Made by a program: the position numbers and the translations under genes. The notes below the pieces were generated by a model. It made no database searches. It was given only the letters and a program-made list of their open reading frames with translations, and was not told where the DNA came from. From Coprobacillaceae bacterium (GTDB lineage: Bacteria; Bacillota_I; Bacilli_A; Erysipelotrichales; Coprobacillaceae): a stretch of DNA of 32,000 bases. The stretch lies in contig OY780959.1 in the NCBI GenBank assembly GCA_963675915.1, positions 1 to 32,000 of the forward strand, given 5' to 3'. Positions 2,503 to 24,665 of the stretch are shown here, piece after piece; within the stretch, counting starts at the first letter, position 1, and each line of letters begins with the position of its first letter.

Positions 2503-3528
2503 TTATGGAGTAATCATTACCGAATTTTCCAGATCAGTAGTAAGATATTCAAACTCTTCCAGGGCGATGTGCCCAGATTCGTACAACCCGCCGTCAATGG
2601 TAAGAATTACCCGGTCGATGGAATAATATCCACCAAAGGTATTGGCAATGCACTGGAGCATCATGGCTTCATAACCGGCTCCAGCGTTCATTTCGCTAAT
2701 GTAGTCGCTACTGAGGTCGATATAGACCATCCCATCTTGATTCAGATAGTACCAGTTGATTTTGGTGTTGGTGGTGAAAACCGGTCCGACACCTTCGGGT
2801 ACGTCATCCTTGTAGGCTTGCTGGAGCACCAGACGGGTAACGTCGTTGGTGTTGAAGGCAATTTCCCGGGACAGATAATAGATATTTCCGTCGTTGATAT
2901 TGGGATAATGGAAGGCGATGTTTTGAACTAACTGAGCATCTTCTTCAATTGAATCCAAAGTCGAGGTTACTTCATATCCGATACCGGTACTGATGGTTTT
3001 AATCAGGCCGACATCTTTGGCATAATAATCAACGCTGGAATAATTGGTTGCTTCAGTTGTCACTTCGATAGCAGAGTAAGTACCTGATCCGGTTTCCAAA
3101 TCAACATCGACAGCAGTTATTGAACGGGTAGAGCCGTCACTAAGTGTCCAGGTTGTTCCCGTTTCAATCGGGCCTTTGAGGAGGATTTCGGAACTTTCAT
3201 TAGTTTTGTCCAGGAAGTTTTCCCGGTGATATGTTTCCCCCTGACTGTAGAGAAGTTTGACCTGATTATCATCGATTCCGATTACTTCCACCATTACCGT
3301 ACCGCCATTGTTGATTCGCAATTGGTATTTGTCAGTTGAGGTATAGTCGATATTGGTCGTATAGGCGGCATATTCATTGCCGTCACCGGAGTAACTGTAG
3401 CTGGTGTTTTCCAAAATCGGGAAATAATCCGCCGCTGAAGTAGCAACGGGATCATCGGTTGACGGGGTACAGGCACTAAGAAATCCGGTAGTTAGAAACA
3501 ATGTGGTTATAATGGATATTTTATTCAT
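2503..3528 (-). CDS. Lipoprotein with one [unknown beta-rich domain + GerMN-like domain] module
   Basis: Signal peptide with lipobox (LTTGFLSAC). The C-terminal half fits the GerMN pattern (FHYPN...TRLVLQQAYK...GPVF..NTKINWYYLNQDGMVYIDLS...AGYEAMMLQCIANTF...V.LTIDGG). SD AAGGAG upstream. Paralogous to the modules of the next gene. Confidence 0.85.
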   Translation of the reverse strand: MNKISIITTLFLTTGFLSACTPSTDDPVATSAADYFPILENTSYSYSGDGNEYAAYTTNIDYTSTDKYQLRINNGGTVMVEVIGIDDNQVKLLYSQGETYHRENFLDKTNESSEILLKGPIETGTTWTLSDGSTRSITAVDVDLETGSGTYSAIEVTTEATNYSSVDYYAKDVGLIKTISTGIGYEVTSTLDSIEEDAQLVQNIAFHYPNINDGNIYYLSREIAFNTNDVTRLVLQQAYKDDVPEGVGPVFTTNTKINWYYLNQDGMVYIDLSSDYISEMNAGAGYEAMMLQCIANTFGGYYSIDRVILTIDGGLYESGHIALEEFEYLTTDLENSVMITP

Positions 3529-3587
3529 TGGGTCATCTCCTTGGTGTTTTCCGGCCGGTTTTTCAACCGAATGGGAAAATGTCTGTT

Positions 3588-6500
3588 TTATAATGCGACC
3601 GAGTCTTCGGTATTGACAGTCAGATATTCGAATCGTTCCAGATAAATATGGCCTGACTCATAAAGCCCCCCATCGATTGTCAGCAAAACGCGGTTGTTTT
3701 GATAATAACTGCCAAAGGTGTTGGCAATACATTGAAGCATCATTGCCTCGTATCCCGAACCAGCGTTCATTTCAGTGATATAATCTTGGCTAAGATCGAT
3801 ATAGACCATGCCATCGCGGTTGAGATAGTACCAGTTGATTTTGGTGTTGGTTGAAAAAACCGGACCAACACCGGCAGGAACGTCCTTATAGGCATTTTGC
3901 AGGACAATTCTGGTGATATCGTTGGTATGGAAACTGATATTCCGGGTTTCAAAATAAATTTTATCATCATTGATATTCGGGTAGAAAAACCGAATATTCT
4001 GAACCAGGGGAGTATCGTACTCTACGGTCTTGAGTGATGAGCTTACTTCGTAGCCTTCACCGGTATTGACCTGTTTTACCAGTCCGATACCTTCGACATA
4101 ATAATCGACATTCTGGTAATTGGCAGCGGAATTGGTAACTTCAATGGCATTATAGCTGCCACTTGGAGTAGTTACATTGGCGGAAACACTGGTGATTGTC
4201 CGGGTTGTTCCGTTGCTTAACTGCCAGCTGGTACCTACTTCGATTGGTCCTTGAAGCAGGATTTCCGAAGTGTTGTTTTTATTTAGGGAATTTTCCCGAT
4301 AGTATGTTTCGGCTTGATTGTAAACGACGGTAATCCGGTTTTCTTCGATATTGAGAACCCGGACAACTTCGGTTCCGGTATTGTTGATTCGCTGTTGAAT
4401 TTTTGAAGCGTTGGTATAGTCTACATAGACATCATAGCCTGCATATTCATTGCCATCGCCTTCATAGACATAGTGAGTATTTTCCAGAATTGGGAAATAA
4501 CTTTGAGCGGTTGTATCGGCCGAATCGACCAATGTTGAAAGATCTTTACAGTCGTCGGTTTTGACATCCAGATATTCAAATCGGCCCAGCGCGATATGCC
4601 CGGACTCATAAAGACCACCGTCGATGGTCAAAACGACATCATTGACCCCGTAATATTCACCGAAGGTATTGGCGACACACCGCAGAATCATGGCTTCGTA
4701 TCCGGCCCCGGCATTCATCTCACTGATAAAAGCCTGATTGAGATCGATATAGGCCATTCCGTCCCGGTTGAGATAGTACCAGTTGATTTTGGTGTTGGCT
4801 GAAAATACCTGTCCCGGCTGGTTTTCAATCTGTTCCTTGTAGGCGTTTTGCAGGATGATTCTGGTGATATCGTTGGTATGGAAACTGATATTCCGGGTTT
4901 TAAAATAAATTTTATCATCATTGATATTCGGGTAGAAAAACCGAATATTCTGAACCAGGGGAGTATCGTACTCTACGGTCTTGAGTGATGAGCTTACTTC
5001 GTAGCCTTCACCGGTATTGACCTGTTTTACCAGTCCGATACCTTCGACATAATAATCGACATTCTGGTAATTGGCAGCGGAATTGGTAACTTCAACGGCA
5101 TTATAGCTGCCACTTGGAGTAGTTACATTGGCGGAAACACTGGTGATTGTCCGGGTTGTTCCGTTGCTTAACTGCCAGCTGGTACCTACTTCGATTGGTC
5201 CTTGAAGCAGGATTTCCGAAGTGTTGTTTTTATTTAGGGAATTTTCCCGATAGTATGTTTCGGCTTGATTGTAAACGACGGTAATCCGGTTTTCTTCGAT
5301 ATTGAGAACCCGGACAACTTCGGTTCCGGTATTGTTGATTCGCTGTTGAATTTTTGAAGCGTTGGTATAGTCTACATAGACATCATAGCCTGCATATTCA
5401 TTGCCATCGCCTTCATAGACATAGTGAGTATTTTCCAGAATTGGGAAATAACTTTGAGCGGTTATATCGGCCGAATCGACCAATGTTGAAAGATCTTTAC
5501 AGTCGTCGGTTTTGACATCCAGATATTCAAACCGGCCCAGCGCGATATGCCCGGACTCATAAAGACCGCCATCGATGGTCAAAACGACATCACTGACCCC
5601 GTAATATTGACCAAAAGTATTGGCGACACACCGCAGAATCATGGCTTCGTATCCGGCCCCGGCATTCATCTCACTGATAAAAGCCTGATTGAGATCGATA
5701 TAGGCCATTCCGTCCCGGTTGAGATAGTACCAGTTGATTTTGGTGTTGGCTGAAAATACCTGACCCGGTTGGTTTTCAATCTGTTCCTTGTAGGCACTTT
5801 GGAGAACAAAGCGGGTGATATCATTGGTGTTGAAACTGATGGCCCGAGATGTGTAATAGATTGTGTCGTCGTTGATATTTGGATAATAGAAGTTGATGTA
5901 CTGGATCAACGGAGTATCTTCTTCGATAGTTTCCAGAGAAGCAGTGACTTCATAGTTTGCCGCGGTGGAGATACTTTTCACCAGTCCGATATCCTTGACG
6001 TAATAATCATGAGTTGTCGAATCCGGATATTCGGTTGTAACTTCGATTGCGGTGTAATTACCACTAGGAGTGGTAACGGCTATAGCCCCGTTGGTGATGC
6101 TACTGGTTACCCCGGCACTTACCGTCCAGGTTGTTCCTACGGCAATGGGACCTTGAAGCAATACTTGGGAAGTGTTGGTTTTATTCAAGGCATTTTCACG
6201 ATAATAAACTTCGCCTTTTTCGTAGACGCAGGTAATTCGGTTTTGTTCAACCTTGATAACTCTGATCATTTCAGTTCCGCCATTGTTGATTCTCAGTTGG
6301 AAGCTGTCTTCATCGAAAAAATCCACATAGGCATCATAAGAAGCATATTCATTTCCGGACCCTTGATAAATGTAATGGACATTGTCAAGAATTGGGAAAT
6401 AATCACTGGCGACGCTTGTCACATCGACATCATTGCCATACTCGCTGATATCCAGGGAATTGATGGTGTCAACTGTCAGATATTCGCCTTCCATGAATGC

Positions 6501-7457
6501 AAAGTGCCCGGATTCATACAGCTCGCCATCAATTGTCAGATTGACATTGTTTACCATATAGTAGGAACCGAAAGTATTGGCGATGCTTTGGAGAATCATT
6601 GCTTCAAAGCCGGAACCGGCATTCATTTCGGTCAAAAATTCCTGATTCAAATCAAGCTTTACGACATCTTCTTCCATCAGATAATATTCATTGATCTGAG
6701 TGTTGGTCGAGAATACCCGGCCCAGTTCCTCAGGATGTTCATCCTTGTAAGCGGCAGCCATAATGGCTCCGGTTATATCGTTGGTACCAAATTCCAAATC
6801 AACTGACTTGTAGTAGTACAGGTCACTTTCAATGTCAGGATAGTATAAATTGACTGTTTTGGTCATCTTGACGTCATTTTCAATCCCAATCAACAATGAG
6901 GAAACCTGCATGTTTTGAGCGAGGTATTCCGTCTTGACTAGACCGATATCCTTGACGTAGTAATCGATAGTTTGATAGTCGAGTCCCTCGGTGGTTACCG
7001 CAACGGCACTGTAATTGGTGTCGGGGGCCTCAACGGTCGTATCGATGCTGGTTATTGTCCTGGTGAGATTGTCTTGAACCGTCCAGGTTGTTCCCACTTC
7101 GATAGGATCTTGAAGCAAGACTTCATTGATTTCGTTTTTGGCCAGGAAATTTTCCCGATAGTAAATTTCGCTTTGTTGGTAGACAAGGCTGACCTGATTA
7201 TCTTCAATTGCGAGCACTTCGACGGTTTCACTGCCCCCGTTATTGATCCGCTGTTGAATGTGGTTGCTGTCATTGTAATCAATATAGACATCAAAAGATG
7301 CATATTCATTTCCTTCGCCCTGGTAAATATAATGGACGTTTTCGAGAATCGGAAAATAGTCCATTGCGGATGTGGTTGTTGGCACATCCGTCACATTACA
7401 CGCTGTTGCGAGCAAGAGAATCAAACTTAACTTGATGACAAAAGTGATTTTTTTCAT
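3588..7457 (-). CDS. Giant lipoprotein (1289 aa) with four tandem [unknown domain + GerMN-like domain] modules
   Basis: Lipobox LLLATAC and SD AGGAG 7 nt upstream. The (D/S)YFPIL(E/D)N module start recurs at 7361, 6404, 5453 and 4502, spaced 957, 951 and 951 nt. Each module ends with a GerMN-like segment. Confidence 0.9.
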   Translation of the reverse strand: MKKITFVIKLSLILLLATACNVTDVPTTTSAMDYFPILENVHYIYQGEGNEYASFDVYIDYNDSNHIQQRINNGGSETVEVLAIEDNQVSLVYQQSEIYYRENFLAKNEINEVLLQDPIEVGTTWTVQDNLTRTITSIDTTVEAPDTNYSAVAVTTEGLDYQTIDYYVKDIGLVKTEYLAQNMQVSSLLIGIENDVKMTKTVNLYYPDIESDLYYYKSVDLEFGTNDITGAIMAAAYKDEHPEELGRVFSTNTQINEYYLMEEDVVKLDLNQEFLTEMNAGSGFEAMILQSIANTFGSYYMVNNVNLTIDGELYESGHFAFMEGEYLTVDTINSLDISEYGNDVDVTSVASDYFPILDNVHYIYQGSGNEYASYDAYVDFFDEDSFQLRINNGGTEMIRVIKVEQNRITCVYEKGEVYYRENALNKTNTSQVLLQGPIAVGTTWTVSAGVTSSITNGAIAVTTPSGNYTAIEVTTEYPDSTTHDYYVKDIGLVKSISTAANYEVTASLETIEEDTPLIQYINFYYPNINDDTIYYTSRAISFNTNDITRFVLQSAYKEQIENQPGQVFSANTKINWYYLNRDGMAYIDLNQAFISEMNAGAGYEAMILRCVANTFGQYYGVSDVVLTIDGGLYESGHIALGRFEYLDVKTDDCKDLSTLVDSADITAQSYFPILENTHYVYEGDGNEYAGYDVYVDYTNASKIQQRINNTGTEVVRVLNIEENRITVVYNQAETYYRENSLNKNNTSEILLQGPIEVGTSWQLSNGTTRTITSVSANVTTPSGSYNAVEVTNSAANYQNVDYYVEGIGLVKQVNTGEGYEVSSSLKTVEYDTPLVQNIRFFYPNINDDKIYFKTRNISFHTNDITRIILQNAYKEQIENQPGQVFSANTKINWYYLNRDGMAYIDLNQAFISEMNAGAGYEAMILRCVANTFGEYYGVNDVVLTIDGGLYESGHIALGRFEYLDVKTDDCKDLSTLVDSADTTAQSYFPILENTHYVYEGDGNEYAGYDVYVDYTNASKIQQRINNTGTEVVRVLNIEENRITVVYNQAETYYRENSLNKNNTSEILLQGPIEVGTSWQLSNGTTRTITSVSANVTTPSGSYNAIEVTNSAANYQNVDYYVEGIGLVKQVNTGEGYEVSSSLKTVEYDTPLVQNIRFFYPNINDDKIYFETRNISFHTNDITRIVLQNAYKDVPAGVGPVFSTNTKINWYYLNRDGMVYIDLSQDYITEMNAGSGYEAMMLQCIANTFGSYYQNNRVLLTIDGGLYESGHIYLERFEYLTVNTEDSVAL
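3908..5796. repeat. In-frame tandem direct repeat, period 951 bp (317 codons), about two copies, nearly identical
   Basis: 3908-4845 and 4859-5796 align base for base at an offset of 951, with only about a dozen mismatches visible by eye (for example 3949 c/t and 4145 t/c). Confidence 0.9.
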
Positions 7458-11466: not shown

Positions 11467-13572
11467 ATGGTAAATAATCAACTGTTTATGCGGCTTAGAT
11501 TATTGTCTACCCAGGATACCAATCAAGTCCATATGTTCAGCTCAATTATTGACACAATTGGAAAAAGCCTCGATCTTTCCCGAGTCAGAGTATTTTTAAA
11601 CAATAAGAAATCCAATCACACCAAATCGATTGCCACCTGGGGACCGGAAAGATACCAGGGCGTCGAGCTTGATAATGAAGAATTGAAGGGAGTATATCAC
11701 CTGCTTTCCCAAAATGTGGTAATTGAAAAAGAAAAAATCGAGGAAATTTCAGGTCCGGTCTGGAATCGTCTCAACCTTGACGGAGCTGGTCCGGCAATAA
11801 TTTATCCGATTGCAAGTTCTGGAATTGTCTGGGGTTTTATTGCCTTTGCGGCAGAATCAAAAAGTCGGGAATTTGGAGTTGAGGATCGTGAAGTCTTCGA
11901 TTTTGCTGCCAAATTGATTGCCAGCAGCCTTGATTATCAAGAAAATCAAGTTGCCTCGATTCAAAGCTGTCGGAGCATTTTCGAACGTCTTGATCAGTTT
12001 GTGATTGTCTGGTATAAAAACGGAGAAATAATTTATGGCAACCAGTATATCTGCGACCTGTTGGAATATACAAGTCGGAATCTGATAAGTCACAATATTA
12101 ACGATATCACCAGAAATATTTTTGACACTAAAAGCAACAGTCCGATGGAATCGATTGCAACCGAAGACGACTGCAATGTTTCTTTGGATCTGGTTGGCAA
12201 TGGCCGGGAAACAATTTCCGCTGAGGGGCAGATCATGTCAATGACCTGGGAACACATCCATTACTCAATTGGAGTTTTCAAAAAAGTTTCTTTCCATCAG
12301 GATGAACTGATGATGTTTATCAAGATGTTCAAAAACAATCCGTCGCTGATCGCGCTGGTCAGTTTACCGGATCTCAAGTTGATTGATGCAAACATCTCTC
12401 TTGAGGATAAAACCGGTTATGGTCTGGAAGAACTCAAAGGCAAACCACTTTATCGAATCCCGCTTTTCACCGAGTCCAAAGATTATTATCCGGTGCTTGA
12501 AAAGATTGTCGAAGAGCGTGAAGCCAAAGATATCGAAATCGAGGTTCACTGCAAAAACGGCAGTATTCTTGAGGGGCTTTTTTCAGCTGAAATTATTTCC
12601 CACAAGGGCCGGGAGTATGTTTTGATGGTCTTGGTCGACATTTCCAAACAAAAACAGATTCAGGCCTTGTACGGGGAGGAAAGAAAACGCCTTAACAGTA
12701 TTATCGAGGGAACCCGTCTGGGAACCTGGGAATGGAATATCCAAACCGGGGAAATTGTTATTAATGACCGATGGGCGAATATGTTGGGCTATGATCTGGC
12801 CGAACTCGAGCCGATTTCAATTCAGACCTGGACCGATTTGATGCACCCGGATGATTTTAAGCGAAGTGAAGAATTGCTCGAACGTCACTTCAAAGGGGAA
12901 ATAAACTTTTATGATATCGAATGCCGCCTGCGTCGTAAAAACGGGAGCTGGCTTTGGGTTCATGATCGCGGTAAGGTGATTGATTGGGACTCTCAAGGAA
13001 ATCCTTTGATGATGTATGGAACTCATTCGGATATTAACAAAAAAAAGGAATTTGAAAAACGGATCAATGAGATCTCCATTAGAGATCCGCTGACCAATAT
13101 CTACAACCGGCGCTTCATTTATGAACAGTTGGAAAAAGATCTGGAACGATATAAACGCAACAATATGCTTTGTTCGGTAGCGATTCTGGATATCGATTAT
13201 TTCAAGGGAATCAATGACCGCTTCGGTCATCTTGCCGGCGATTACATTCTCAAGGAATTCACTTTGCTGATAAGTGAAAATCTGCGTGATTATGATTTGC
13301 TGGGACGATATGGCGGCGAAGAGTTCATTATCATCATGTACGACAGCAACCGCCGTGATTCGGCAACGATTATCGAAAGAATCCTGGATATAACCCGTGA
13401 GAAAAAATTCCACTACAATGGCAATGAAATAAGTTTCACCTTTAGCGCTGGAATTGCCGATATCTCCGAATTCACCCAAACTGATCTGACCAACGAAAAA
13501 ATAATCTCGCTGGCTGATCAAAGGTTGTATGCTGCCAAACAGAGTGGTCGCAACAAGATCATTTTTGACTAA
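11467..13572 (+). CDS. Cytoplasmic GAF-PAS(x3)-GGDEF diguanylate cyclase
   Basis: SD GGAGG. GGEEF at 13312-13326. RDYD (RxxD I-site) sits exactly 5 residues upstream at 13285-13296. Also DIDYFKGINDRFGH, RLYAAKQSGRN and the PAS signature GTWEWN...WANMLGY. No TM segments. Confidence 0.93.
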   Translation: MVNNQLFMRLRLLSTQDTNQVHMFSSIIDTIGKSLDLSRVRVFLNNKKSNHTKSIATWGPERYQGVELDNEELKGVYHLLSQNVVIEKEKIEEISGPVWNRLNLDGAGPAIIYPIASSGIVWGFIAFAAESKSREFGVEDREVFDFAAKLIASSLDYQENQVASIQSCRSIFERLDQFVIVWYKNGEIIYGNQYICDLLEYTSRNLISHNINDITRNIFDTKSNSPMESIATEDDCNVSLDLVGNGRETISAEGQIMSMTWEHIHYSIGVFKKVSFHQDELMMFIKMFKNNPSLIALVSLPDLKLIDANISLEDKTGYGLEELKGKPLYRIPLFTESKDYYPVLEKIVEEREAKDIEIEVHCKNGSILEGLFSAEIISHKGREYVLMVLVDISKQKQIQALYGEERKRLNSIIEGTRLGTWEWNIQTGEIVINDRWANMLGYDLAELEPISIQTWTDLMHPDDFKRSEELLERHFKGEINFYDIECRLRRKNGSWLWVHDRGKVIDWDSQGNPLMMYGTHSDINKKKEFEKRINEISIRDPLTNIYNRRFIYEQLEKDLERYKRNNMLCSVAILDIDYFKGINDRFGHLAGDYILKEFTLLISENLRDYDLLGRYGGEEFIIIMYDSNRRDSATIIERILDITREKKFHYNGNEISFTFSAGIADISEFTQTDLTNEKIISLADQRLYAAKQSGRNKIIFD

Positions 13573-16002: not shown

Positions 16003-16075
16003 GTTGGCGAATTATTTTCATGATTATCGATCTGGAGATAGGACTTAACTCCTTGATAGATGACGCTCAATAATT

Positions 16076-16108
16076 TTGGCACCAGTGCCAAGTGCCAAAT
16101 TGAATTTT
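16076..16108 (+). promoter_or_regulatory. Putative MtlR operator, site A
   Basis: TTGGCAC-ca-GTGCCAA-GTGCCAA-ATTGAATTTT. A near-identical block lies at 21838-21870. The half-sites equal the TTGNCAC/GTGNCAA half-sites reported for Bacillus/Geobacillus MtlR operators, as I recall them. Confidence 0.55.
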
Positions 16109-16115
16109 GGTTTCG

Positions 16116-16145
16116 TTGAAAACCATAAATGATAGCGCTTATAAT
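16116..16145 (+). promoter_or_regulatory. Putative sigma-A promoter PmtlA
   Basis: TTGAAA-18 nt-TATAAT. The -35 starts exactly 40 nt after the first base of the operator block. Confidence 0.6.
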
Positions 16146-16212
16146 GGAATTGTAAACAAGAAGTACTTGGCCAAAAAACTTCTATTTCGACAAATTCAAA
16201 GGAGAGTATATA

Positions 16213-17589
16213 ATGAAAGAAAAAGTACAAAGTGTCGGCCGCTTTCTCAGCGGTATGGTTATGCCAAACATCGGAGCGTTTATCGCTTGGGGATTGATTA
16301 CCTCATTCTTTATTCCAACTGGATGGATTCCAAATGAAACCTTCGCTGGTTTAGTTGGTCCCATTATCACATATCTTTTACCGCTATTGATTGCCTATAC
16401 AGGTGGTAAGATGGTTCATGGAGCTCGTGGTGGAGTTATCGGGGCCATTGCAACTATGGGGGTTATCGTTGGTTCCGGGAATGTAATGTTCCTTGGAGCA
16501 ATGATGGTAGGTCCGGCTGCGGCTTGGGTATTGAAACAATTTGATGAAAGAGTTGAAGATCATATCCGCCCGGGATTTGAAATGTTGATCAACAACTTCT
16601 CACTGGGAATTATTGCTTTTGGTCTGGCTTTATTGTCAATGAAAGGTATCGTTCCTGTTGTTGATGGAATCACCAATGGTTTGTCTGCAGGAGTTCAATT
16701 CTTCGTTGACAGAAATTTATTACCTCTTGCATCGCTGTTCATTGAACCGGCTAAAATCCTGTTTTTGAACAATGCCATCAATCATGGTATCTTCTCGCCT
16801 CTTGGAATTGCCCAGGTTGAAGAAGTAGGTAAGTCGATTTTCTTCCTGCTTGAAGCCAATCCGGGACCAGGTCTTGGTATTTTGTTGGCATACATGATTG
16901 CTGGAAAAGGAAACTCGAAAGCTTCTGCACCTGGTGCGATTATCATCCATTTCCTTGGTGGTATCCATGAAATTTATTTCCCATTCGTATTGATGAATCC
17001 GTTGTTGATTCTGGCTGTAATTGCCGGGGGAGCTTCAGGTGTTCTTACATTCTCATTATTCAACGTCGGTCTTACTGCACCTGCTTCACCAGGTTCGATT
17101 CTGGCAGTATTGGCGATGTGTTCAAGAGACAGTTATATCGGACTGATTTTAGGGGTAGCTATTGCAGCTGCGGTTTCAATGATTGTCGGTATTGCAATCC
17201 TGCGTTTTTCTTCAAAAGACGGTTCTTTGGAAGCGGCTCAGGAAAAAACAAGTGCCATGAAAGCTGCTGCTAAAAATGTGGCAACAACTGCGGAACCTGT
17301 TATCGGTAAAGTGAAAAAAATTGCTTTTGCCTGTGATGCCGGAATGGGATCAAGTGCCATGGGAGCATCGGTATTGAAAAAGAAAATAAAAGAAGCCGGA
17401 TTGGATATCGAAGTAATTCACACATCGGTTTCGTCAATTCCTGAAGATGTTCAAGTTGTCGTAACTCACGAAGAGTTGGAAGCTCGGGCTCGAACAAGCA
17501 ATCCAAGTGCAAAGCTGGTATTGATCACCAATTTCCTTGGTGCGCCTGAATATGACGAATTAGTTGAGTATTTACTGGAAAATAGATAG
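16213..17589 (+). CDS. mtlA: PTS mannitol-specific EIICB
   Basis: VQSVGRFLSGMVMPNIGAFIAWG, NNAINHGIFSPLG, EANPGPGLG and GGIHEIYFPFVLMNP. C-terminal EIIB has KKIAFACDAGMGSSAMGA. SD AAAGGAG. Confidence 0.95.
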   Translation: MKEKVQSVGRFLSGMVMPNIGAFIAWGLITSFFIPTGWIPNETFAGLVGPIITYLLPLLIAYTGGKMVHGARGGVIGAIATMGVIVGSGNVMFLGAMMVGPAAAWVLKQFDERVEDHIRPGFEMLINNFSLGIIAFGLALLSMKGIVPVVDGITNGLSAGVQFFVDRNLLPLASLFIEPAKILFLNNAINHGIFSPLGIAQVEEVGKSIFFLLEANPGPGLGILLAYMIAGKGNSKASAPGAIIIHFLGGIHEIYFPFVLMNPLLILAVIAGGASGVLTFSLFNVGLTAPASPGSILAVLAMCSRDSYIGLILGVAIAAAVSMIVGIAILRFSSKDGSLEAAQEKTSAMKAAAKNVATTAEPVIGKVKKIAFACDAGMGSSAMGASVLKKKIKEAGLDIEVIHTSVSSIPEDVQVVVTHEELEARARTSNPSAKLVLITNFLGAPEYDELVEYLLENR

Positions 17590-17604
17590 ATATCCCCAAA
17601 AACC

Positions 17605-17627
17605 GGGCACGGAAGTGTCCCTTTTTT
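17605..17627 (+). terminator. Weak terminator/attenuator-like hairpin between the two EIICB genes
   Basis: GGGCAC-ggaa-GTG(T)CCC with one bulge, followed by T6. Confidence 0.4.
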
Positions 17628-17652
17628 GGTATAATAACTTTAGGTGATTATA

Positions 17653-18969
17653 ATGAAAGAAAATATTATTAAAATTGCAAAGTTTTACGCTTCGGTGATA
17701 ATGTCATGCATCGGGATTTTCATCTTCCTGGGAATTTTGAACACGATAAACAGCTTTCACCCCAATGAGATTACAGCCAAAGGGACTGAGATGATAATCG
17801 ACATCATCCTCCCGGTGATGATAGCTTATCTTTCCAGCAAACGGATTTCCAACCACCAGGGTGGGATAATTGGGGCACTGGGGGTTTTGGGTCTGGTTGT
17901 CAGCCAAACGTCCTTCAATATCATCGGAGCTTTTATAATCGGAACCGGTGCCGGTCTTTTGACTGCCCGGGTTTTGGAACGGCTATTTGAAAAAATACCT
18001 TCTGGTTTCGAATTGCTGATCAAGAATCTGGTTATCGGAGTAGCGGCCTTGATAATCAACGTTGCAGCCTTGTATCTGCTTATTCCCGGACTTGAAGTCC
18101 TGGGTGATTCCTGCATCAAAGCAATCGATTATCTCATCTCCAACGAGTTGCTACCCTTGATTGCGATAATAATCGAACCGGGAAAGGTGTTCTTTTTGAA
18201 TAATTTGATCAATCACGGAATTCTGGTTCCGATTGGTCTTTCCCAGGTAAGCCATGAGGGCAGTTCGATTTTGTTTTTCCTGGAAACCAATCCTGGGCCT
18301 GGAGCCGGGGTGATTTTAGCGCTGGCATTTACCCGGAAGCGGGAATTGAAACAGATGCTTTCTTATGGGCTGGTTGAGTTTTTAGGTGGGATTCATGAGA
18401 TTTACTTTCCGATTGTGCTGGAATTCAAGCAACTGTTCATTTCGCTGATTCTCGGGGGAATGACCGGAATCATCACAATCGAACAAATGGGAATCGGTCT
18501 GACCAATCCGATAAGTCCCGGAAGTATCCTGACCATAATTCTGGGGACTACTCCCAAGATGCAATCGATGGTCATAGTTCCGATAATGGCTTCGTTTCTG
18601 GTTTCGCTTATCACCGGAATGGTTTTGCTTCAAATGAAGAAAAACCCCAAGAAAGAATTGCGCAGTGAGCCAATTCGAGCTGAAAAAATTCATAAAATCG
18701 TATTCACCTGTGATGGTGGGTTTGGATCTTCGGTGATGGGTTCTTCCCTTTTCAAACGCAAGATCAAAAAATATAATTACAATATCGAGGTTGTAGCCAA
18801 ATCAGTAGACACCATCGATGATGACGGTGATATCATCGTTTGTCAGGATGGGTTCCAGGATACTGTCAGGCAATATCAACCTGAAAAGGAAATATATGTG
18901 GTAAAAGAATTTCTGGATAATTCAAGTTACCAAAAACTGATTGAAATGATTATGGAAAGGAACCAGTGA
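17653..18969 (+). CDS. Second, divergent mannitol-family PTS EIICB
   Basis: Keeps NNLINHGILVPIG, ETNPGPGAG, GGIHEIYFPIVL and the EIIB motif KIVFTCDGGFGSSVMGS. Its N-terminus lacks the canonical MtlA motif. ATG 6 nt after AGGTGA. Confidence 0.85.
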   Translation: MKENIIKIAKFYASVIMSCIGIFIFLGILNTINSFHPNEITAKGTEMIIDIILPVMIAYLSSKRISNHQGGIIGALGVLGLVVSQTSFNIIGAFIIGTGAGLLTARVLERLFEKIPSGFELLIKNLVIGVAALIINVAALYLLIPGLEVLGDSCIKAIDYLISNELLPLIAIIIEPGKVFFLNNLINHGILVPIGLSQVSHEGSSILFFLETNPGPGAGVILALAFTRKRELKQMLSYGLVEFLGGIHEIYFPIVLEFKQLFISLILGGMTGIITIEQMGIGLTNPISPGSILTIILGTTPKMQSMVIVPIMASFLVSLITGMVLLQMKKNPKKELRSEPIRAEKIHKIVFTCDGGFGSSVMGSSLFKRKIKKYNYNIEVVAKSVDTIDDDGDIIVCQDGFQDTVRQYQPEKEIYVVKEFLDNSSYQKLIEMIMERNQ

Positions 18970-18970
18970 T

Positions 18971-21028
18971 ATGAGTTTTGCACCAAGAGTCAATAGTATT
19001 TTGCTAGAACTGTTAAAACATGATAATCTTTCCGTCAAGGAATTGGCCGCTTTGGTCGGGGTATCCAAAAGAACCATGCAGCGGGAGCTGAACAATATCA
19101 ATTATGAACTGGATGATTTTGCTCTTAGTTTCAAGACCAAACCCGGTAAGGGAGTCTGGCTTGAAGGGACCGAGGAGGCCAAACTGGCATTGCTAAGGGA
19201 AATAGAAGGCGATACCACGATTGATAATTCATCTGCCCAGGCCCGACAAAAGAAAATCCTGCTCGAATTGCTCAAGACCCAGAATGTGCAAAAAATAATC
19301 ACTTTTGCCAGAATGATTGATGTCTCCGAAGCGACAATCAGGCTCGATCTCAAGGAAATTGAAAAATGGCTCCGGTCTTTTGAGCTTGCTTTGGAAAAGA
19401 CGCCTGGTCTTGGAGTGCGTTTGCGCGGTAGTGAAGCCGATGTAAGAAGGGCAATCAGAGCCTATTTCACCAACTTTGCCACTCACAACAAATCGGGACA
19501 GCGGTTTGATGAAATCAAAGAATTCATGGTCAACAATCATCAGGAGATTACGGAATTGCTTGATGAAGATATCCTTGATCGGGTTATTGACTGTCTTGAA
19601 GACATTGACTCCAACCAGATCAGCAAGTTGACTGAAAGTTCCTACATCGGACTGGTAATCCATCTGGCGATAGTTGTCAAACGGATTCAGGATGGTGAAA
19701 CCATCACTTATAACAAAGAGTTGATTTCAAGCAGCGATGATGACAATGAGGCCAAACTGGCCAGAATTATCGCCGAGTTTCTGGAGGCGGAATTTGATAT
19801 CGAACTTGATGAAATGGAGCAATATTACATTGCACTCCATCTCAAAGGGACCAAGCACCAGATGATGGATGCCAAAAATCTGAATATCGACAATGTCTCA
19901 ATCAGGATTCTGATCAATGAAATGATTGATGCATATGATGAAAAGTTGGCTTTCCGGCTTAAACAGGATGATATCTTTATCAATGGCTTGCTGGCTCATC
20001 TCCAGCCGACCTTGATCAGACTGAACAATGACATGGTTATTTCCAATCCGTTGCTCGAGCAGGTCAAGAGCAAATATCCTATGGAATTTGAAAAATGCCA
20101 AAAGGTTGCTGATGTTCTTGAAAAGTGGACTGGTAGAGTAGTGCCCGTCGGAGAAGTCGGTTTTTTGACGATCCATTTCGGAAGTGCCGGAATCAGGATG
20201 AATGTTCAGGATAAAATCCGTCGCAAGGTAAATGTCGGGGTTATCTGCGCTACCGGAATTGGCTTGTCCCGGCTGATGGCGGTAAGTCTTGAAAAAAAAT
20301 ATGGTGAAAAAATCAATGTTTACTCCTATTCGAAAAATGATGCATTCAATGATGACAGGATCGATTTCTATCTCTCCTCAATCAAGATTGAACATCCCGG
20401 CAACAATCTGATTTATGTCAATGCGATTATCAGTGATGAAGATGAAAAAAATATCGAAACGGCAATTGAGGAATATGCTTATCAGCCTGAAAAAAATAAT
20501 GACAGGAAAATAGATGTTTTGGACAAACTAGAAAAAATTCATTATTACAGTCATATTATCAATGAACTGCTGACAAATCTGGCGGTGTTCAAGGTTTCCG
20601 GGAACAGTTCCTTTGAATCCATTGTCCGAGTGATTGATGAAGGATTGGGGGAAGCTGGCGATTTCGGAATTTATGATGACCTGATGAGAAGAGAAAAGAT
20701 CGGAAGTCAGATTTTCAAAGAACTCGGATTTGGGTTGCTTCATAGCAAAACAGCAGGAGTTGACAAGCCGCTGATTGCCATAATTATCCCGGACAAAGGC
20801 GAGAGTTTTAGCGATAAATATCTTGAAAATGTCGGAGTTATCGTTTGTCTGCTGATGCCAATCAATGACCGAGTCAGTGAAAATTCGGAAATTCTCGGCT
20901 ACTTCTCTTCAATATTGATTGAAGATGATGAGCTTCTGGGAATTCTCGGGCGGGGCGAATCGGATCAAATCACCGATTATCTCGCCAAACACTTCGAATT
21001 GTTTCTAAATAATGTGATCCGATCATAA
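18971..21028 (+). CDS. mtlR: PRD-containing mannitol operon transcriptional activator (HTH-Mga-PRD1-PRD2-EIIB(Gat)-like-EIIA(Mtl)-like)
   Basis: 685 aa. N-terminal wHTH LSVKELAALVGVSKRTMQRELNNI. PRD histidines (HLAIVVKR, LLAHLQPTL). EIIB-like VGVICATGIGLSRL and EIIA-like GLLHSKTAG. Its ATG lies 1 nt after the stop of the preceding gene. Confidence 0.92.
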   Translation: MSFAPRVNSILLELLKHDNLSVKELAALVGVSKRTMQRELNNINYELDDFALSFKTKPGKGVWLEGTEEAKLALLREIEGDTTIDNSSAQARQKKILLELLKTQNVQKIITFARMIDVSEATIRLDLKEIEKWLRSFELALEKTPGLGVRLRGSEADVRRAIRAYFTNFATHNKSGQRFDEIKEFMVNNHQEITELLDEDILDRVIDCLEDIDSNQISKLTESSYIGLVIHLAIVVKRIQDGETITYNKELISSSDDDNEAKLARIIAEFLEAEFDIELDEMEQYYIALHLKGTKHQMMDAKNLNIDNVSIRILINEMIDAYDEKLAFRLKQDDIFINGLLAHLQPTLIRLNNDMVISNPLLEQVKSKYPMEFEKCQKVADVLEKWTGRVVPVGEVGFLTIHFGSAGIRMNVQDKIRRKVNVGVICATGIGLSRLMAVSLEKKYGEKINVYSYSKNDAFNDDRIDFYLSSIKIEHPGNNLIYVNAIISDEDEKNIETAIEEYAYQPEKNNDRKIDVLDKLEKIHYYSHIINELLTNLAVFKVSGNSSFESIVRVIDEGLGEAGDFGIYDDLMRREKIGSQIFKELGFGLLHSKTAGVDKPLIAIIIPDKGESFSDKYLENVGVIVCLLMPINDRVSENSEILGYFSSILIEDDELLGILGRGESDQITDYLAKHFELFLNNVIRS

Positions 21029-21175
21029 ATAATGTGTTTCATTTGAATTTCTCGGTTGTAAGTGATAAATTGATTTTAATAAATCCGGTAACATTAGATT
21101 ATTTAATCGTTACTTTGGGTAGCGGGTCCGGATCCGAAACGATTCAATAAGGACTAAATGGAAGGGGAAATTAAA

Positions 21176-21772
21176 ATGAATGGATATATTGATTTGATTA
21201 AAAAAAGAAGAAGCAATTATTCGCTGGGTCGCAATATCGAGGTTGACGATGAACGGATTATTGAGTTGGTTGAAACTGCGGTTTTGTACAACCCTTCACC
21301 CTACAATTCACAGGCTTCGAAAGTGATTGTGCTATTCAATGAGGAGCATGACCGTTTATGGGAAGCGATTAAAGCGGCTTTGGAACAAATAGTCAAACCG
21401 GAACGGTTTGAAAGAACCCGAAAAAAGATTGATGGCTTCAAGAGCGCTTATGGAACCATTCTATACTTTTCTGATGAAAACATCATGGACGACTTGAGGG
21501 AAAAATTTCCCAAATATGCCCATAATTTCACTCTTTGGTCACAGCAGTCGGGCGGAATGCTGCAATATGCGATTTGGACCGGATTGGGGACGCTGAATCT
21601 CGGTGCCAGTTTGCAACACTATAATGAAGTTATTGAGGACCAGGTCCGGGATATGTATCATGTCGATTCCAAATACCGCCTGCTAGCGCAAATGCCATTT
21701 GGTTCGATTGAGAAAGCTCCCAAAGAAAAGGAAATCAGTCATGAAGACCGGATTGAAATAATCGGAAGATAA
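21176..21772 (+). CDS. Nitroreductase family protein
   Basis: LIKKRRSNYSL and PSPYNSQ motifs. Start set at the ATG 8 nt after GGAAGGGGA. Confidence 0.85.
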   Translation: MNGYIDLIKKRRSNYSLGRNIEVDDERIIELVETAVLYNPSPYNSQASKVIVLFNEEHDRLWEAIKAALEQIVKPERFERTRKKIDGFKSAYGTILYFSDENIMDDLREKFPKYAHNFTLWSQQSGGMLQYAIWTGLGTLNLGASLQHYNEVIEDQVRDMYHVDSKYRLLAQMPFGSIEKAPKEKEISHEDRIEIIGR

Positions 21773-21779
21773 TAATCAA

Positions 21780-21821
21780 AACACCCTAGCTAAACTAATT
21801 TTCAGTCAGGGTGTTTTTTTG
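21780..21821 (+). terminator. Intrinsic terminator after the nitroreductase gene
   Basis: AACACCCT-20 nt loop-AGGGTGTT followed by T7. Confidence 0.65.
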
Positions 21822-21837
21822 TTGCAATTACGAATAT

Positions 21838-21870
21838 TTGGCACTAAGTGCCAGTGCCAAATCGAATTTT
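21838..21870 (+). promoter_or_regulatory. Putative MtlR operator, site B
   Basis: TTGGCAC-taa-GTGCCA-GTGCCAA-ATCGAATTTT. Same composite motif and length as site A. Confidence 0.55.
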
Positions 21871-21877
21871 CAAAACA

Positions 21878-21906
21878 TTGAAATGTATGGGGTTTAAGGA
21901 GATAAT
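21878..21906 (+). promoter_or_regulatory. Putative sigma-A promoter PmtlF
   Basis: TTGAAA-17 nt-GATAAT. The -35 again starts 40 nt after the first base of the operator block. Confidence 0.55.
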
Positions 21907-21946
21907 TGGAGTGTAGAAAAAATCTGATTACGAAAGGAAAGTTGTT

Positions 21947-22411
21947 ATGTTGTTTGGTAAAAGCAAAGCAAAGAAAATAGAAATACCTTTATTGAAAAAA
22001 GATAATGTCATAGTTGGAGCAAAAGCTGAAAACAAAGTTGATGCGATCAAACAGGTCGGTCAGCTATTGGTCGACAGTGGATATGTAAGAGAATCATATA
22101 TTGAGGGAATGATTGCCAGAGAGGATACTTTCGCCACTTATATGGGAAATTATCTGGCGCTGCCTCATGGAGTCGAAGCTGTCAAGGATGATATCCTGAG
22201 TTCGGGAATCGCAGTAATGATATTCCCGGATGGAGTCGACTGGGATGGCAACGTTGCTAAAATTGTGATTGGGATTGCCGGTAAAGGCGGTGAACATATC
22301 GAAATCCTTTCCAATATTGCAACCAAGCTGATTGATGTCGAGGTTTGCGAAGAGATCATCGAAAGTGATCCGGAAGCGATTTATGAAATATTGACTAGTG
22401 GGGTGGAATAA
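21947..22411 (+). CDS. mtlF: PTS mannitol-specific EIIA
   Basis: 154 aa with REDTFATYMGNYLALPHG (phosphorylatable His) and IVIGIAGKG. Confidence 0.92.
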   Translation: MLFGKSKAKKIEIPLLKKDNVIVGAKAENKVDAIKQVGQLLVDSGYVRESYIEGMIAREDTFATYMGNYLALPHGVEAVKDDILSSGIAVMIFPDGVDWDGNVAKIVIGIAGKGGEHIEILSNIATKLIDVEVCEEIIESDPEAIYEILTSGVE

Positions 22412-23343
22412 TGATAGTAACTATTACAATGAATCCGGCCATCGACAAGACGATTGAAATCACTGAATTCAATCTGGGTGGTCTCAACCGAATCAAAACA
22501 GTGATCCAGGATGCCGGTGGGAAAGGAATCAACGTTTCCAAAACCATCAAGGCTTTGAACGGCGACTCATTGGCATTGGGGTTTGTCGGTGGTAATACCG
22601 GGAGGTTCATCACTGATTCGCTGGACAAAATCGGTGTCAGTCACGATTTTGTCAAACTCGATGAGGATACCCGAGTAAACACCAAGGCGATTGAAGCTGA
22701 TGGAAGAGTTACTGAAATAAACGAACCGGGACCGATAATCAATACCGCCAAAGTAGACGAGTTGTTGGAAAAGGTGCGTCAGTATGCCAATGAAGATACC
22801 TTGTTTGTGGTGGCTGGATCGGTGCCTCAGGGAGTTTCCAAAAATATTTATTCGAAAATTACCGATATCGCCCATCTTGCCGGGGCCCAAGTCCTGCTTG
22901 ATGCCGATGGTGAACTGTTTAGAGAAACGCTGGTTTCCAACCCTGATTTCATCAAGCCTAATCGGGAAGAATTGGAAGCTTATTCGAATCTCAATCATAA
23001 GCCAAGTCGTGATGAGCTTATTGAAATCGCCCGGGACTTGAAAACCAAAGGTGTCGGGAATGTGGTTGTTTCAATGGGAAAAGCCGGTGCATTGTTTTTA
23101 ATGGAAGAGCAGGAAGTATTCGTACCGGGCCTGAAGGTTGAAGCGCATTCGACTGTAGGAGCTGGGGATGCCCTGGTGGCCGGACTGGCGTACAGCATTG
23201 AAAATAAACTGGATTTTGAAGAATTGGTCAGATTATGTGTCGGGGTTTCCGCTGGGGCGGTGACGACCATCGGAACAAAACCGCCGGAGTTGGAATTGGT
23301 CAATCAATTAAAAGCACAAGTAAAAATTGAAAATATAGGTTAA
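22411..23343 (+). CDS. fruK: PfkB-family 1-phosphofructokinase-like sugar-phosphate kinase (FruK/LacC type)
   Basis: MIVTITMNPAIDKT, AGGKGINVS, GAGDALVAG. The ATG overlaps the mtlF stop (TAATG). FruK and tagatose-6-P kinase cannot be told apart by eye. Confidence 0.8.
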   Translation: MIVTITMNPAIDKTIEITEFNLGGLNRIKTVIQDAGGKGINVSKTIKALNGDSLALGFVGGNTGRFITDSLDKIGVSHDFVKLDEDTRVNTKAIEADGRVTEINEPGPIINTAKVDELLEKVRQYANEDTLFVVAGSVPQGVSKNIYSKITDIAHLAGAQVLLDADGELFRETLVSNPDFIKPNREELEAYSNLNHKPSRDELIEIARDLKTKGVGNVVVSMGKAGALFLMEEQEVFVPGLKVEAHSTVGAGDALVAGLAYSIENKLDFEELVRLCVGVSAGAVTTIGTKPPELELVNQLKAQVKIENIG

Positions 23344-23354
23344 GGAGAAAATAT

Positions 23355-24620
23355 ATGAAAACAAAAGCAGTAAGAATGTATGGAGCAGACGATCTTCGTT
23401 TGGAAGAATTTGAATTACCACAAATCAAAGATGATGAAATTTTGGTCAAAGTAATGAGTGACAGTATCTGTATGTCGACCTACAAACTGGCGATTCAAGG
23501 TAAGAAACACAAAAGAGCGCCCCAAAATATCGATACCAATCCAATCATTATCGGTCATGAATTTGCCGGTGTGATTGTCGAAGTCGGTGAAAAATGGAAA
23601 GATCAGTTTAAACCGGGAATGAAATTCGCGCAACAGCCGGCCTTGAATTACAAAGGATCACTGGCGTCACCGGGATATTCATATGAGTTCTTCGGCGGAG
23701 CCTGCACTTATTGTATCATTCCTCAGGAAGTGATGGAACTGGGTTGTTTGATGGAATACAACGGTGAAAGTTTCTTCGAAGCTTCACTTGGCGAACCGAT
23801 GTCTTGCATTATTGGGGGATATCATGCCAATTACCATACCAACAAGCGCAACTACGATCATGCCGGAGGAACTAAAGAAGACGGGAATATCATCATCCTT
23901 GGGGGATGTGGTCCAATGGGTCTTGGTGCCGTTTCGTACGGTCTGCAATTTGAAAACAAACCAAAACGAATTGTGGTATCCGATATTGATGATGCTAAAA
24001 TCGCTCGGGCTCGAGAAGTCATTTCTGAAGAATCAGCTAAGGAAAAAGGGGTTGAACTGATCTATGTCAACACTGCTAAAATGGCTGATCCAATCAAGGA
24101 ATTGCGTGATATCACAGATGGTGTCGGGTATGATGATGTGTTTGTCTATATCCCTAACCGCGCCGTTGCTGAAATGGGTGACAAACTCTTGGCATTTGAC
24201 GGTTGTCTGAACTTCTTTGCCGGTCCGACTGACAACCAGTTCTCAGCCCAAATCAACCTTTACAATGTCCACTACATCGCAACTAAAATCATCGGTTCTA
24301 CCGGTGGGAACAATGATGATTTGATCGAAGCCAATGAGTTGGCGGCCCAAAAACGGATTGAACCGGCGGTAATGGTGACTCATGTCGGCGGGATTGACTC
24401 AATTGCCAAGGCAACTCTAGATCTCCCAAATATTCCAGGTGGTAAAAAATTGACGTACACTCAATTAGATATGCCACTTACTGCAATTGAAGATTTCGAA
24501 GAATTGGGTAAAACCGACCCATTGTTCAAAAAACTTGATGAAGCATGCAAGGAAAATCGTGGTTTATGGAATGCCAAAGCCGAACAAATCCTGTTTGAAC
24601 ACTATAATGTAACATACTAA
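23355..24620 (+). CDS. Zn-dependent medium-chain dehydrogenase of the ~420-aa L-sorbose-1-phosphate reductase (SorE)-like type
   Basis: DSICMS and GHEFAG (Zn ligands), GGCGPMGLG (Rossmann fold). The 421-aa length is typical of SorE-like enzymes rather than ~345-aa GatD or sorbitol dehydrogenases. SD AAGGAG. Confidence 0.75.
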   Translation: MKTKAVRMYGADDLRLEEFELPQIKDDEILVKVMSDSICMSTYKLAIQGKKHKRAPQNIDTNPIIIGHEFAGVIVEVGEKWKDQFKPGMKFAQQPALNYKGSLASPGYSYEFFGGACTYCIIPQEVMELGCLMEYNGESFFEASLGEPMSCIIGGYHANYHTNKRNYDHAGGTKEDGNIIILGGCGPMGLGAVSYGLQFENKPKRIVVSDIDDAKIARAREVISEESAKEKGVELIYVNTAKMADPIKELRDITDGVGYDDVFVYIPNRAVAEMGDKLLAFDGCLNFFAGPTDNQFSAQINLYNVHYIATKIIGSTGGNNDDLIEANELAAQKRIEPAVMVTHVGGIDSIAKATLDLPNIPGGKKLTYTQLDMPLTAIEDFEELGKTDPLFKKLDEACKENRGLWNAKAEQILFEHYNVTY

Positions 24621-24636
24621 TATTTACAATTTGCCC

Positions 24637-24665
24637 AAAGCAACCGATCTCCCGGTTGCTTTTTG
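24637..24665 (+). terminator. Intrinsic terminator ending the mtlF operon
   Basis: AAAGCAACCG-atctcc-CGGTTGCTTT followed by TT. Confidence 0.8.

Follow-up and report, generated by a model that had tools for sequence, protein, structure and literature searches.

A mannitol-family phosphotransferase locus that encodes a SorE/YggP-family zinc dehydrogenase and a FruK-like kinase and lacks MtlD

Analysis of a 32-kb window of DNA from a Coprobacillaceae bacterium (assembly GCA_963675915.1, contig OY780959.1, positions 1 to 32,000 of the forward strand; gene coordinates are based on the list of its open reading frames, or ORFs, and their translations) revealed a mannitol (Mtl)-family phosphotransferase system (PTS) locus that codes for a 421-aa zinc medium-chain dehydrogenase (MDR) and a FruK-like kinase, and from which the long-chain dehydrogenase MtlD is absent. 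We propose that mannitol would enter the cell via the EIICB(Mtl) and EIIA components to give mannitol-1-phosphate (mannitol-1-P), that the dehydrogenase would oxidize this at C2, next to the phosphate and probably with NAD+, to D-fructose-1-phosphate (fructose-1-P), and that the co-translated FruK would convert the latter to fructose-1,6-bisphosphate (FBP), with fructose-6-phosphate (fructose-6-P) being bypassed. A preliminary description of the locus had already suggested an oxidation next to the phosphate followed by a kinase step to the 1,6-bisphosphate, and this order of events is now favored by the operon slot of the dehydrogenase, its exclusivity with MtlD, the linkage to FruK, the homology to SorE and the type of transporter. 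Given the gene identities, architecture, MtlD exclusivity, FruK linkage and homology that are observed, we regard the route from mannitol through mannitol-1-P and fructose-1-P to FBP as probable; mannitol as the substrate, the C2 regiochemistry, the cofactor and the regulation are what we infer from the comparative data.

The terminal enzyme of the mannitol operon

The locus shares with the canonical mtlA-mtlR-mtlF-mtlD operon of the Geobacillus/Bacillus type its EIICB, an MtlR with PRD and EIIA domains, a separate EIIA, the gene order and the position of the dehydrogenase gene, such that a mannitol-specific EIICB, a PRD-type MtlR and an EIIA(Mtl) are all present. It departs from that operon in encoding, instead of the long-chain MtlD, an unrelated Zn MDR, usually accompanied in related loci by FruK, and in its predicted product, which would be fructose-1-P and not fructose-6-P. 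A further difference, seen in this genome, is that a nitroreductase gene splits the operon into two units with a shared operator-like element. None of the ORFs of at least 150 aa in the window contains an MtlD domain (PF01232/PF08125), and tblastn with E. coli MtlD gave no match at E<=1e-3 in the window, nor within 10 kb on either side of the dehydrogenase gene in 80 related loci; the original observation that nothing in the window resembles MtlD is thereby upheld.

These 80 loci come from 80 species-level genomes that encode the dehydrogenase at 65-88% identity and were searched by tblastn with the window proteins. Mtl-family PTS genes adjoin the dehydrogenase gene in 78 of them, and the commonest order, mtlA-mtlR-mtlF-(fruK)-MDR, places the MDR in the usual mtlD slot; in ~68 of the 80, mtlR separates mtlA from mtlF. 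The only neighbors found to recur by an unbiased clustering of ORFs are ptsI (29 loci), HPr, GlmS and a class-3 fructose-1,6-bisphosphatase (FBPase). No aldolase, isomerase or second dehydrogenase recurs across the 80 loci by the same clustering, and the dehydrogenase, with or without FruK, would therefore constitute the whole catabolic module. Adjacency of the FBPase gene (5 of 91 MDR loci versus 0 of 46 MtlD loci, p=0.17) is anecdotal and not enriched in the Firmicute loci, and was discarded as support for entry at FBP. A single full-length locus (L003, from a Lacrimispora metagenome-assembled genome) carries an 87%-identical copy of the dehydrogenase with no PTS, MtlR or FruK homolog within 10 kb.

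A scan of metagenomes seeded with EIICB1, the first of two EIICB proteins encoded in the window, recovered 80 loci with transporters 55-72% identical to it, 58 of which contain scorable operons. Forty-six of these operons end in MtlD, 12 end in the MDR and none has both, so that local co-occurrence of the two dehydrogenases amounts to 0 of 58 metagenomic operons and likewise to 0 of 80 genome loci. In a neighbor-joining tree of the transporters, computed without bootstrap, MDR-linked and MtlD-linked members are interspersed at several places, and because of this interspersion it is suggestive that the terminal enzyme has been swapped repeatedly on an orthologous mannitol-transporter backbone. 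Together these observations point to a displacement of MtlD by a two-enzyme module, MDR plus FruK, which would have changed the entry point into glycolysis.

The kinase and its linkage to the dehydrogenase

The kinase scores 324 bits on the 1-phosphofructokinase (1-PFK) equivalog model TIGR03828, above its cutoff of 292, and falls far below the models for the tagatose-6-phosphate kinase LacC (159-175 bits; cutoffs 410-469) and for Pfk-II/PfkB-II (137 bits; cutoff 353). The FruK profile therefore prevails over the LacC and Pfk-II models, in agreement with the FruK-like label that the protein had been given, and it is predicted to phosphorylate fructose-1-P at C6 with ATP. The stop codon of the EIIA gene and the start codon of fruK overlap as TAATG, and FruK is to all appearances translationally coupled to EIIA. 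The proposed route has its second step, the kinase family and the entry at FBP in common with the fructose PTS pathway (fruBKA/fruRKA); it differs in that fructose-1-P would arise from oxidation of a hexitol phosphate and not from phosphorylation by a PTS, and no Fru-type EIIBC is present in the locus.

The combination of EIIA(Mtl), PfkB-family kinase and MDR genes extends well beyond this genome, with FruK adjacent in 62 of the 80 genome loci, and in-operon FruK is seen in 7 of 12 MDR-type as opposed to 0 of 46 MtlD-type metagenomic operons (Fisher p=2.6e-6). The MDR-linked kinases derive from at least two FruK lineages and occur in at least three gene orders. Examples include: 1) a Caproiciproducens locus (L066) with the order mtlA-mtlR-mtlF-MDR-fruK, in which the kinase gene lies 37 nt downstream and no fructose PTS is found nearby; 2) a locus (L053) with a divergent DeoR-family regulator followed by MDR-mtlA(CBA)-fruK; 3) a locus (L062) in which the MDR-fruK pair stands alone among housekeeping genes. 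The kinases of these three loci are only 33-40% identical to the FruK of the window, yet score 326-353 bits on the 1-PFK equivalog, and the kinase appears to have been recruited independently. A subfamily at 49% identity (P0123) shows the order EIICB-EIIA-MDR-PfkB-HPr-EI-MtlR. The SorE subfamily (P0124, Klebsiella, Lactiplantibacillus) occurs, for its part, with a mannose-family PTS and a SorD-type short-chain dehydrogenase/reductase (SDR). The accessory enzyme would thus seem to track the direction of the reaction, namely an SDR where the MDR reduces a ketose-1-phosphate and a kinase where the MDR would make one. In Clostridium sp. Marseille-P2415 (L051, 8166-12823) the fruK-MDR pair is duplicated in tandem, and both MDRs are 74% identical to the window protein.

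These linkages also bear on whether the MDR could be an analog of MtlD that oxidizes the distal C5 of mannitol-1-P to fructose-6-P, with the PfkB protein acting as a 6-phosphofructokinase or in another pathway. Such a role would accord with the location of the MDR exactly in the mtlD slot, with the 18 of 80 loci that have no adjacent FruK and with the existence of MDRs like GatD that oxidize the distal carbon (4a2c was found as a weak match). Nevertheless, we think it quite unlikely, since the kinase exceeds the 1-PFK equivalog cutoff and is far below that of Pfk-II (137 versus 353), none of the 46 MtlD-type operons contains a FruK, and the characterized homolog SorE acts next to the phosphate; furthermore, two FruK lineages, several gene orders and a bare MDR-fruK pair are hard to explain unless fructose-1-P is the product.

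The dehydrogenase family, the transporter and the likely substrate

The dehydrogenase contains the GroES-like ADH_N domain (PF08240, 39.8 bits) and the ADH_zinc_N domain (PF00107, 37.2 bits), both above their cutoffs; it reaches no curated family cutoff, and NCBIfam has no SorE-specific model. The motifs GHEFAG (residues 67-72) and GGCGPMGLG (residues 183-191, with the GxGxxG signature GCGPMG at 184-189) are present, and the catalytic Zn ligands Cys39, His68, Glu69 and Glu147, an EP-motif Glu among them, do not vary across 87 members of the family, such that the Zn site and the Rossmann motif are both intact; the four-Cys lobe that holds a structural Zn is missing. An aspartate (Asp210) past the second strand of the Rossmann fold suggests NAD+ as the cofactor. 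The AlphaFold2 model has a pLDDT of 94.9, and its best Foldseek matches are Zn MDRs (probability 1.0, TM-score ~0.8 on the target) of a generic kind at ~20% identity. With the domains and fold of the MDR superfamily, the Zn ligands and the dinucleotide-binding motif all in place, the protein is a bona fide Zn MDR. Its family has no solved structure, as the closest solved structures are those generic MDRs at ~20% identity.

The family is small, comprising ~22 full-length clusters at 50% identity; relatives of the dehydrogenase were found in at least 579 species-representative genomes. The clade of the window protein is, by contrast, very common and highly conserved, holding together at 82-88% identity across Erysipelotrichaceae, Lachnospiraceae and Peptacetobacter. 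Of the named relatives the nearest is E. coli YggP (52% identity), followed by a Photobacterium homolog (50%) and by SorE, with full-length identities of 42.5% over 414 aa for the Klebsiella protein and 42.3% for the sorbose-operon protein of Lactiplantibacillus. Thus, the earlier description of the enzyme as SorE-like stands as regards the family, at 42-43% identity, with the amendment that YggP is its nearest named relative. Residues invariant in this family and common to SorE and the window protein are H306, Y307, K364, Y368, W405 and E410, while the Mtl/Cmt-linked clades are separated from the SorE clade by T42/S, R54/K, A96/N, A143/G and E273/T; these five positions are candidates for a change in specificity.

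SorE interconverts L-sorbose-1-phosphate and D-glucitol-6-phosphate (PMC12817954). The SorE enzymes, the only relatives with genetic validation, thus work next to the phosphorylated carbon, at C2 of a ketose-1-phosphate. D-fructose-1-P is the C5 epimer of L-sorbose-1-phosphate and D-mannitol-1-P the C2 epimer of D-glucitol-6-phosphate, with the single difference between the two hexitol phosphates lying at the carbon farthest from the oxidized center. Given this stereochemistry, the SorE reaction carried out at the same stereocenter on mannitol-1-P would yield fructose-1-P, the substrate of FruK. The two proteins are also alike in family, in length (~410-425 aa), in their Zn ligands and in the invariant residues listed above. 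They differ in context and direction: SorE of Klebsiella, E. coli and Lactobacillus works reductively alongside a mannose-family PTS and the SDR SorD, whereas the present clade, associated with an Mtl-family PTS and FruK, would oxidize the C2 epimer.

Close homologs of the dehydrogenase are called L-sorbose 1-phosphate reductase in some sources, and the full-length identity of 42-43% to SorE might be taken to mean that it is a true enzyme of that kind, acting in the reductive direction on a ketose imported by the PTS. This is very improbable. True SorE genes occur with a mannose-family PTS and the SDR SorD; neither is present in the window, and no mannose-family PTS or SDR recurs in the 80 loci, so that the sorbose operon context (sorFBAM, SorD) is lacking. 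Moreover, the transporter here is of the Mtl family, and a FruK beside the reductase would compete with it for the same ketose-1-phosphate.

That transporter is consistent with mannitol as the substrate. EIICB1 scores above two mannitol PTS models of NCBIfam (NF011663, 666 bits, cutoff 589; TIGR00851 mtlA, 506 bits, cutoff 468) and, compared along the entire IIC-IIB region, shares 59% identity with the experimentally defined E. coli MtlA; its identity to the cryptic CmtA is 51%. A bona fide mannitol permease is its nearest counterpart by sequence, and transport of mannitol its probable function. The separate EIIA has a PTS_EIIA_2 domain (PF00359, 110 bits) and is 35% identical to the IIA domain of E. 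coli MtlA. The second EIICB (EIICB2) scores 277 bits, below the mannitol-model cutoff, and is 34% identical to EIICB1, with the GIHE motif and the IIB cysteine retained. A second EIICB occupies a similar place in ~12 related loci and could serve a second polyol. In four other loci (L094, L110, L116 and L137) the MDR gene follows one for a fused EIICBA(Mtl), with MtlR upstream and no adjacent FruK; in the first three of these an extra EIICB gene precedes the fused one.

The presence of this diverged EIICB, both here and in ~12 other loci, raises the question of whether the pathway might handle a different polyol, for instance glucitol phosphorylated at C1, galactitol (giving tagatose-1-phosphate) or a rarer hexitol, with the PfkB protein being the matching ketose-1-phosphate kinase. 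Tagatose-1-phosphate kinases are close relatives of FruK, one host genus (that of L066) is named for galactitol use, and in E. coli the related CmtAB and YggP are cryptic proteins for which the literature gave no function. The evidence, however, renders this alternative unlikely in that EIICB1 exceeds the mannitol PTS cutoffs and is nearer to MtlA than to CmtA, its relatives in MtlD operons are interspersed with the MDR-linked ones, the kinase passes the fructose-1-P kinase equivalog, and the 80 loci show no recurrent tagatose-bisphosphate aldolase or other additional enzyme.

A comparison with the cryptic E. coli cluster cmtB-cmtA-yggP-yggF-yggD-yggC (L081, 6127-11481) shows that YggP, like the window dehydrogenase, is encoded directly downstream of an Mtl-family PTS, and in this adjacency and in its high full-length identity the window dehydrogenase resembles the YggP clade of Enterobacteria and Vibrionaceae. 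The accompanying genes are different, with a GlpX-type FBPase (yggF), YggD of the PF05068 MtlR-repressor family and the P-loop kinase-like YggC in E. coli instead of FruK and a PRD activator; by tblastn, no YggF, YggD or YggC homologs were found in the window or the 80 loci. Homologs of YggD and YggC are also encoded in a Photobacterium locus (L084). Published work on Vibrio parahaemolyticus and Salmonella Weltevreden goes no further than naming a sorE-like gene beside cmtAB. A Geobacillus genome paper that has MtlD yielding fructose-1-P was set aside, given that it concerns canonical MtlD and is an apparent slip.

Further relatives occur in still other settings. A subfamily at 45% identity (P0126; L168, 568-6107 and L169, 707-5279) lies immediately behind the genes of a glycyl-radical enzyme and its activase and downstream of a PfkB kinase gene, an unusual arrangement that suggests a radical-enzyme pathway for a sugar or polyol phosphate. 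Two groups at 52-54% identity have no PTS, one (P0121; L170/L171, 3790-8287) following an aldolase_II-SDR fusion and an unannotated protein of 425 aa, the other (P0122; L172, 221-3990) preceding an FGGY kinase gene and a glucokinase-like gene. With contexts this varied at ~50% identity, homology alone cannot fix function, and filing the dehydrogenase as SorE or YggP by homology was rejected on account of these relatives in unrelated contexts.

Several points weigh against the proposed mannitol-1-P 2-dehydrogenase route. First, SorE/YggP relatives at ~50% identity lie beside an FGGY kinase, an aldolase-SDR fusion and a glycyl-radical enzyme, and function is not conserved family-wide at that level. 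Second, 59% identity to MtlA is no proof of mannitol specificity, since the cryptic CmtA is itself 53% identical to MtlA. Third, the MDR fold does not dictate regiochemistry, as another MDR, GatD, oxidizes the distal carbon of a hexitol phosphate. Fourth, the loci without an adjacent FruK, including those of Megasphaera, Roseburia porci, Butyrivibrio, Agathobacter and Shuttleworthella, would need fruK to be encoded elsewhere in the genome. Fifth, the absence of MtlD is a finding on the 32-kb window, and an mtlD could lie elsewhere in the genome. Finally, full-text literature searches yielded no enzymology or genetics for the clade or for E. coli YggP, and no functional literature on yggP and the cmtAB-yggP cluster or on a mannitol-1-P dehydrogenase forming fructose-1-P.

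Organization and regulation of the locus, and its implications

Seven ORFs, including that of a nitroreductase-family protein, span two units (16213-21028 and 21947-24620) and the gap gene between them (Table 1). The coordinates, units and family assignments of the preliminary description were all reproduced by the ORF list and the profile searches, and the TAATG overlap and both dehydrogenase motifs were found in the sequence as it had reported; the nitroreductase gene between the units had been missed.

Table 1. Genes and putative signals of the Mtl-type locus
Feature	Position	Strand	Basis or remarks
Operator-like element 1, TTTGGCACCAGTGCCAAGTGCCAAATTGAATTTT	16075..16108	+	Inverted repeat TTGGCAC/GTGCCAA; aligns with element 2
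Promoter-like site, unit 1	16116..16145	+	TTGAAA, 18 nt, TATAAT; 11/12 consensus positions (consensus scan)
mtlA-type PTS EIICB(Mtl) (EIICB1)	16213..17589	+	NF011663, TIGR00851, identity to E. coli MtlA
Second, diverged Mtl-family EIICB (EIICB2)	17644..18969	+	Profile score, identity to EIICB1
MtlR-type PRD-containing activator, 685 aa	18971..21028	+	HTH/Mga, PRD, PRD and EIIA-like domains
Nitroreductase-family gene	21158..21772	+	Pfam PF00881; sits between both units
Hairpin and T-run after nitroreductase gene	~21780-21820 (to 21822)		Read from sequence
Operator-like element 2, TTTGGCACTAAGTGCCAGTGCCAAATCGAATTTT	21837..21870	+	Aligns with element 1
Promoter-like site, unit 2	21878..21906	+	TTGAAA, 17 nt, GATAAT
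mtlF-type PTS EIIA (Mtl/Fru class)	21947..22411	+	PF00359, identity to MtlA IIA
FruK, PfkB-family 1-phosphofructokinase	22411..23343	+	TIGR03828; TAATG overlap with EIIA
421-aa Zn medium-chain dehydrogenase (MDR), SorE/YggP family	23355..24620	+	ADH_N, ADH_zinc_N; motifs
Terminator-like hairpin, GCAACCG/6-nt loop/CGGTTGC then TTTTT	24640..24664	+	Closes unit 2; read from sequence, unlisted by consensus scan

The regulator encoded at the end of unit 1 has an HTH/Mga region, two PRD domains and a C-terminal EIIA_2 domain (Pfam), the architecture of an MtlR-type activator. Each unit is preceded by one copy of a 34-nt element that stops 7 nt upstream of the TTGAAA -35 hexamer, and a gapped scan for the pattern TTTGGCAC..GTGCCA.GTGCCAAAT.GAATTTT returned two exact matches in the window against 0 expected. 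The elements, which may resemble the inverted-repeat operators of Bacillus MtlR, are probable MtlR binding sites. Because an identical operator-like element precedes each unit, the two presumably form one regulon activated by the PRD regulator MtlR. The other 80 loci do not preserve the motif as such, and co-regulation is therefore supported in this genome only. A sequence resembling a catabolite-responsive element (cre), TGATAGCGCTTATA at 16130-16143, lies across the -10 box of the promoter of unit 1. Matches to the cre pattern in the window are at chance level (7 versus an expectation of 4.0; a count of 7 was reached in 11 of 100 shuffles), and catabolite control through this site was not relied on.

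Insertion of the nitroreductase gene seems to have been lineage-specific and to have divided what was once one operon, as no nitroreductase homolog occupies the mtlR-mtlF gap in any of the 80 related loci, and the product of the gene probably lies outside the pathway. The duplicated operator-like element may restore control of the unit downstream of this insertion. The flanks of the locus (935-2353, 2503-7457, 11467-13572) code for an ISL3-family transposase, two proteins with "Germane" (spore germination) domains, one of them 1289 aa long, and a 701-aa protein with a GGEEF motif at its end. These genes are unrelated to the mannitol locus and are compatible with a spore-forming Bacillota host.

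Mannitol is a polyol common in diets and in pharmaceuticals, and Clostridia rank among the major polyol consumers of the gut. If the proposed route is correct, pathway-inference tools would call genomes of this type mannitol-negative or leave a gap in the pathway, the key enzyme being annotated as "zinc-binding dehydrogenase" or "L-sorbose 1-phosphate reductase". A bypass of fructose-6-P and of control at PfkA, along with the production of fructose-1-P, a known regulatory metabolite, could also alter flux and regulation during growth on mannitol. The route would be a clean case of non-orthologous displacement that shifts the entry point of a pathway and not merely its enzyme, and it provides a concrete hypothesis for the orphan cmtAB-yggP clusters of E. 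coli, Salmonella and Vibrio.

In its most general form, a proposal for which we see the balance as even, the clade would be a D-mannitol-1-phosphate 2-dehydrogenase forming fructose-1-P, which together with FruK would make up a third bacterial route from mannitol to FBP and replace MtlD in hundreds of gut and rumen species of Bacillota, as well as in some Spirochaetes and Desulfovibrionaceae; it would also supply a first testable function for the cmtBA-yggPF genes of E. coli, which have been cryptic for 30 years. Taken together, the comparative data point to an undescribed route that would take mannitol into glycolysis and that is widespread among gut bacteria.

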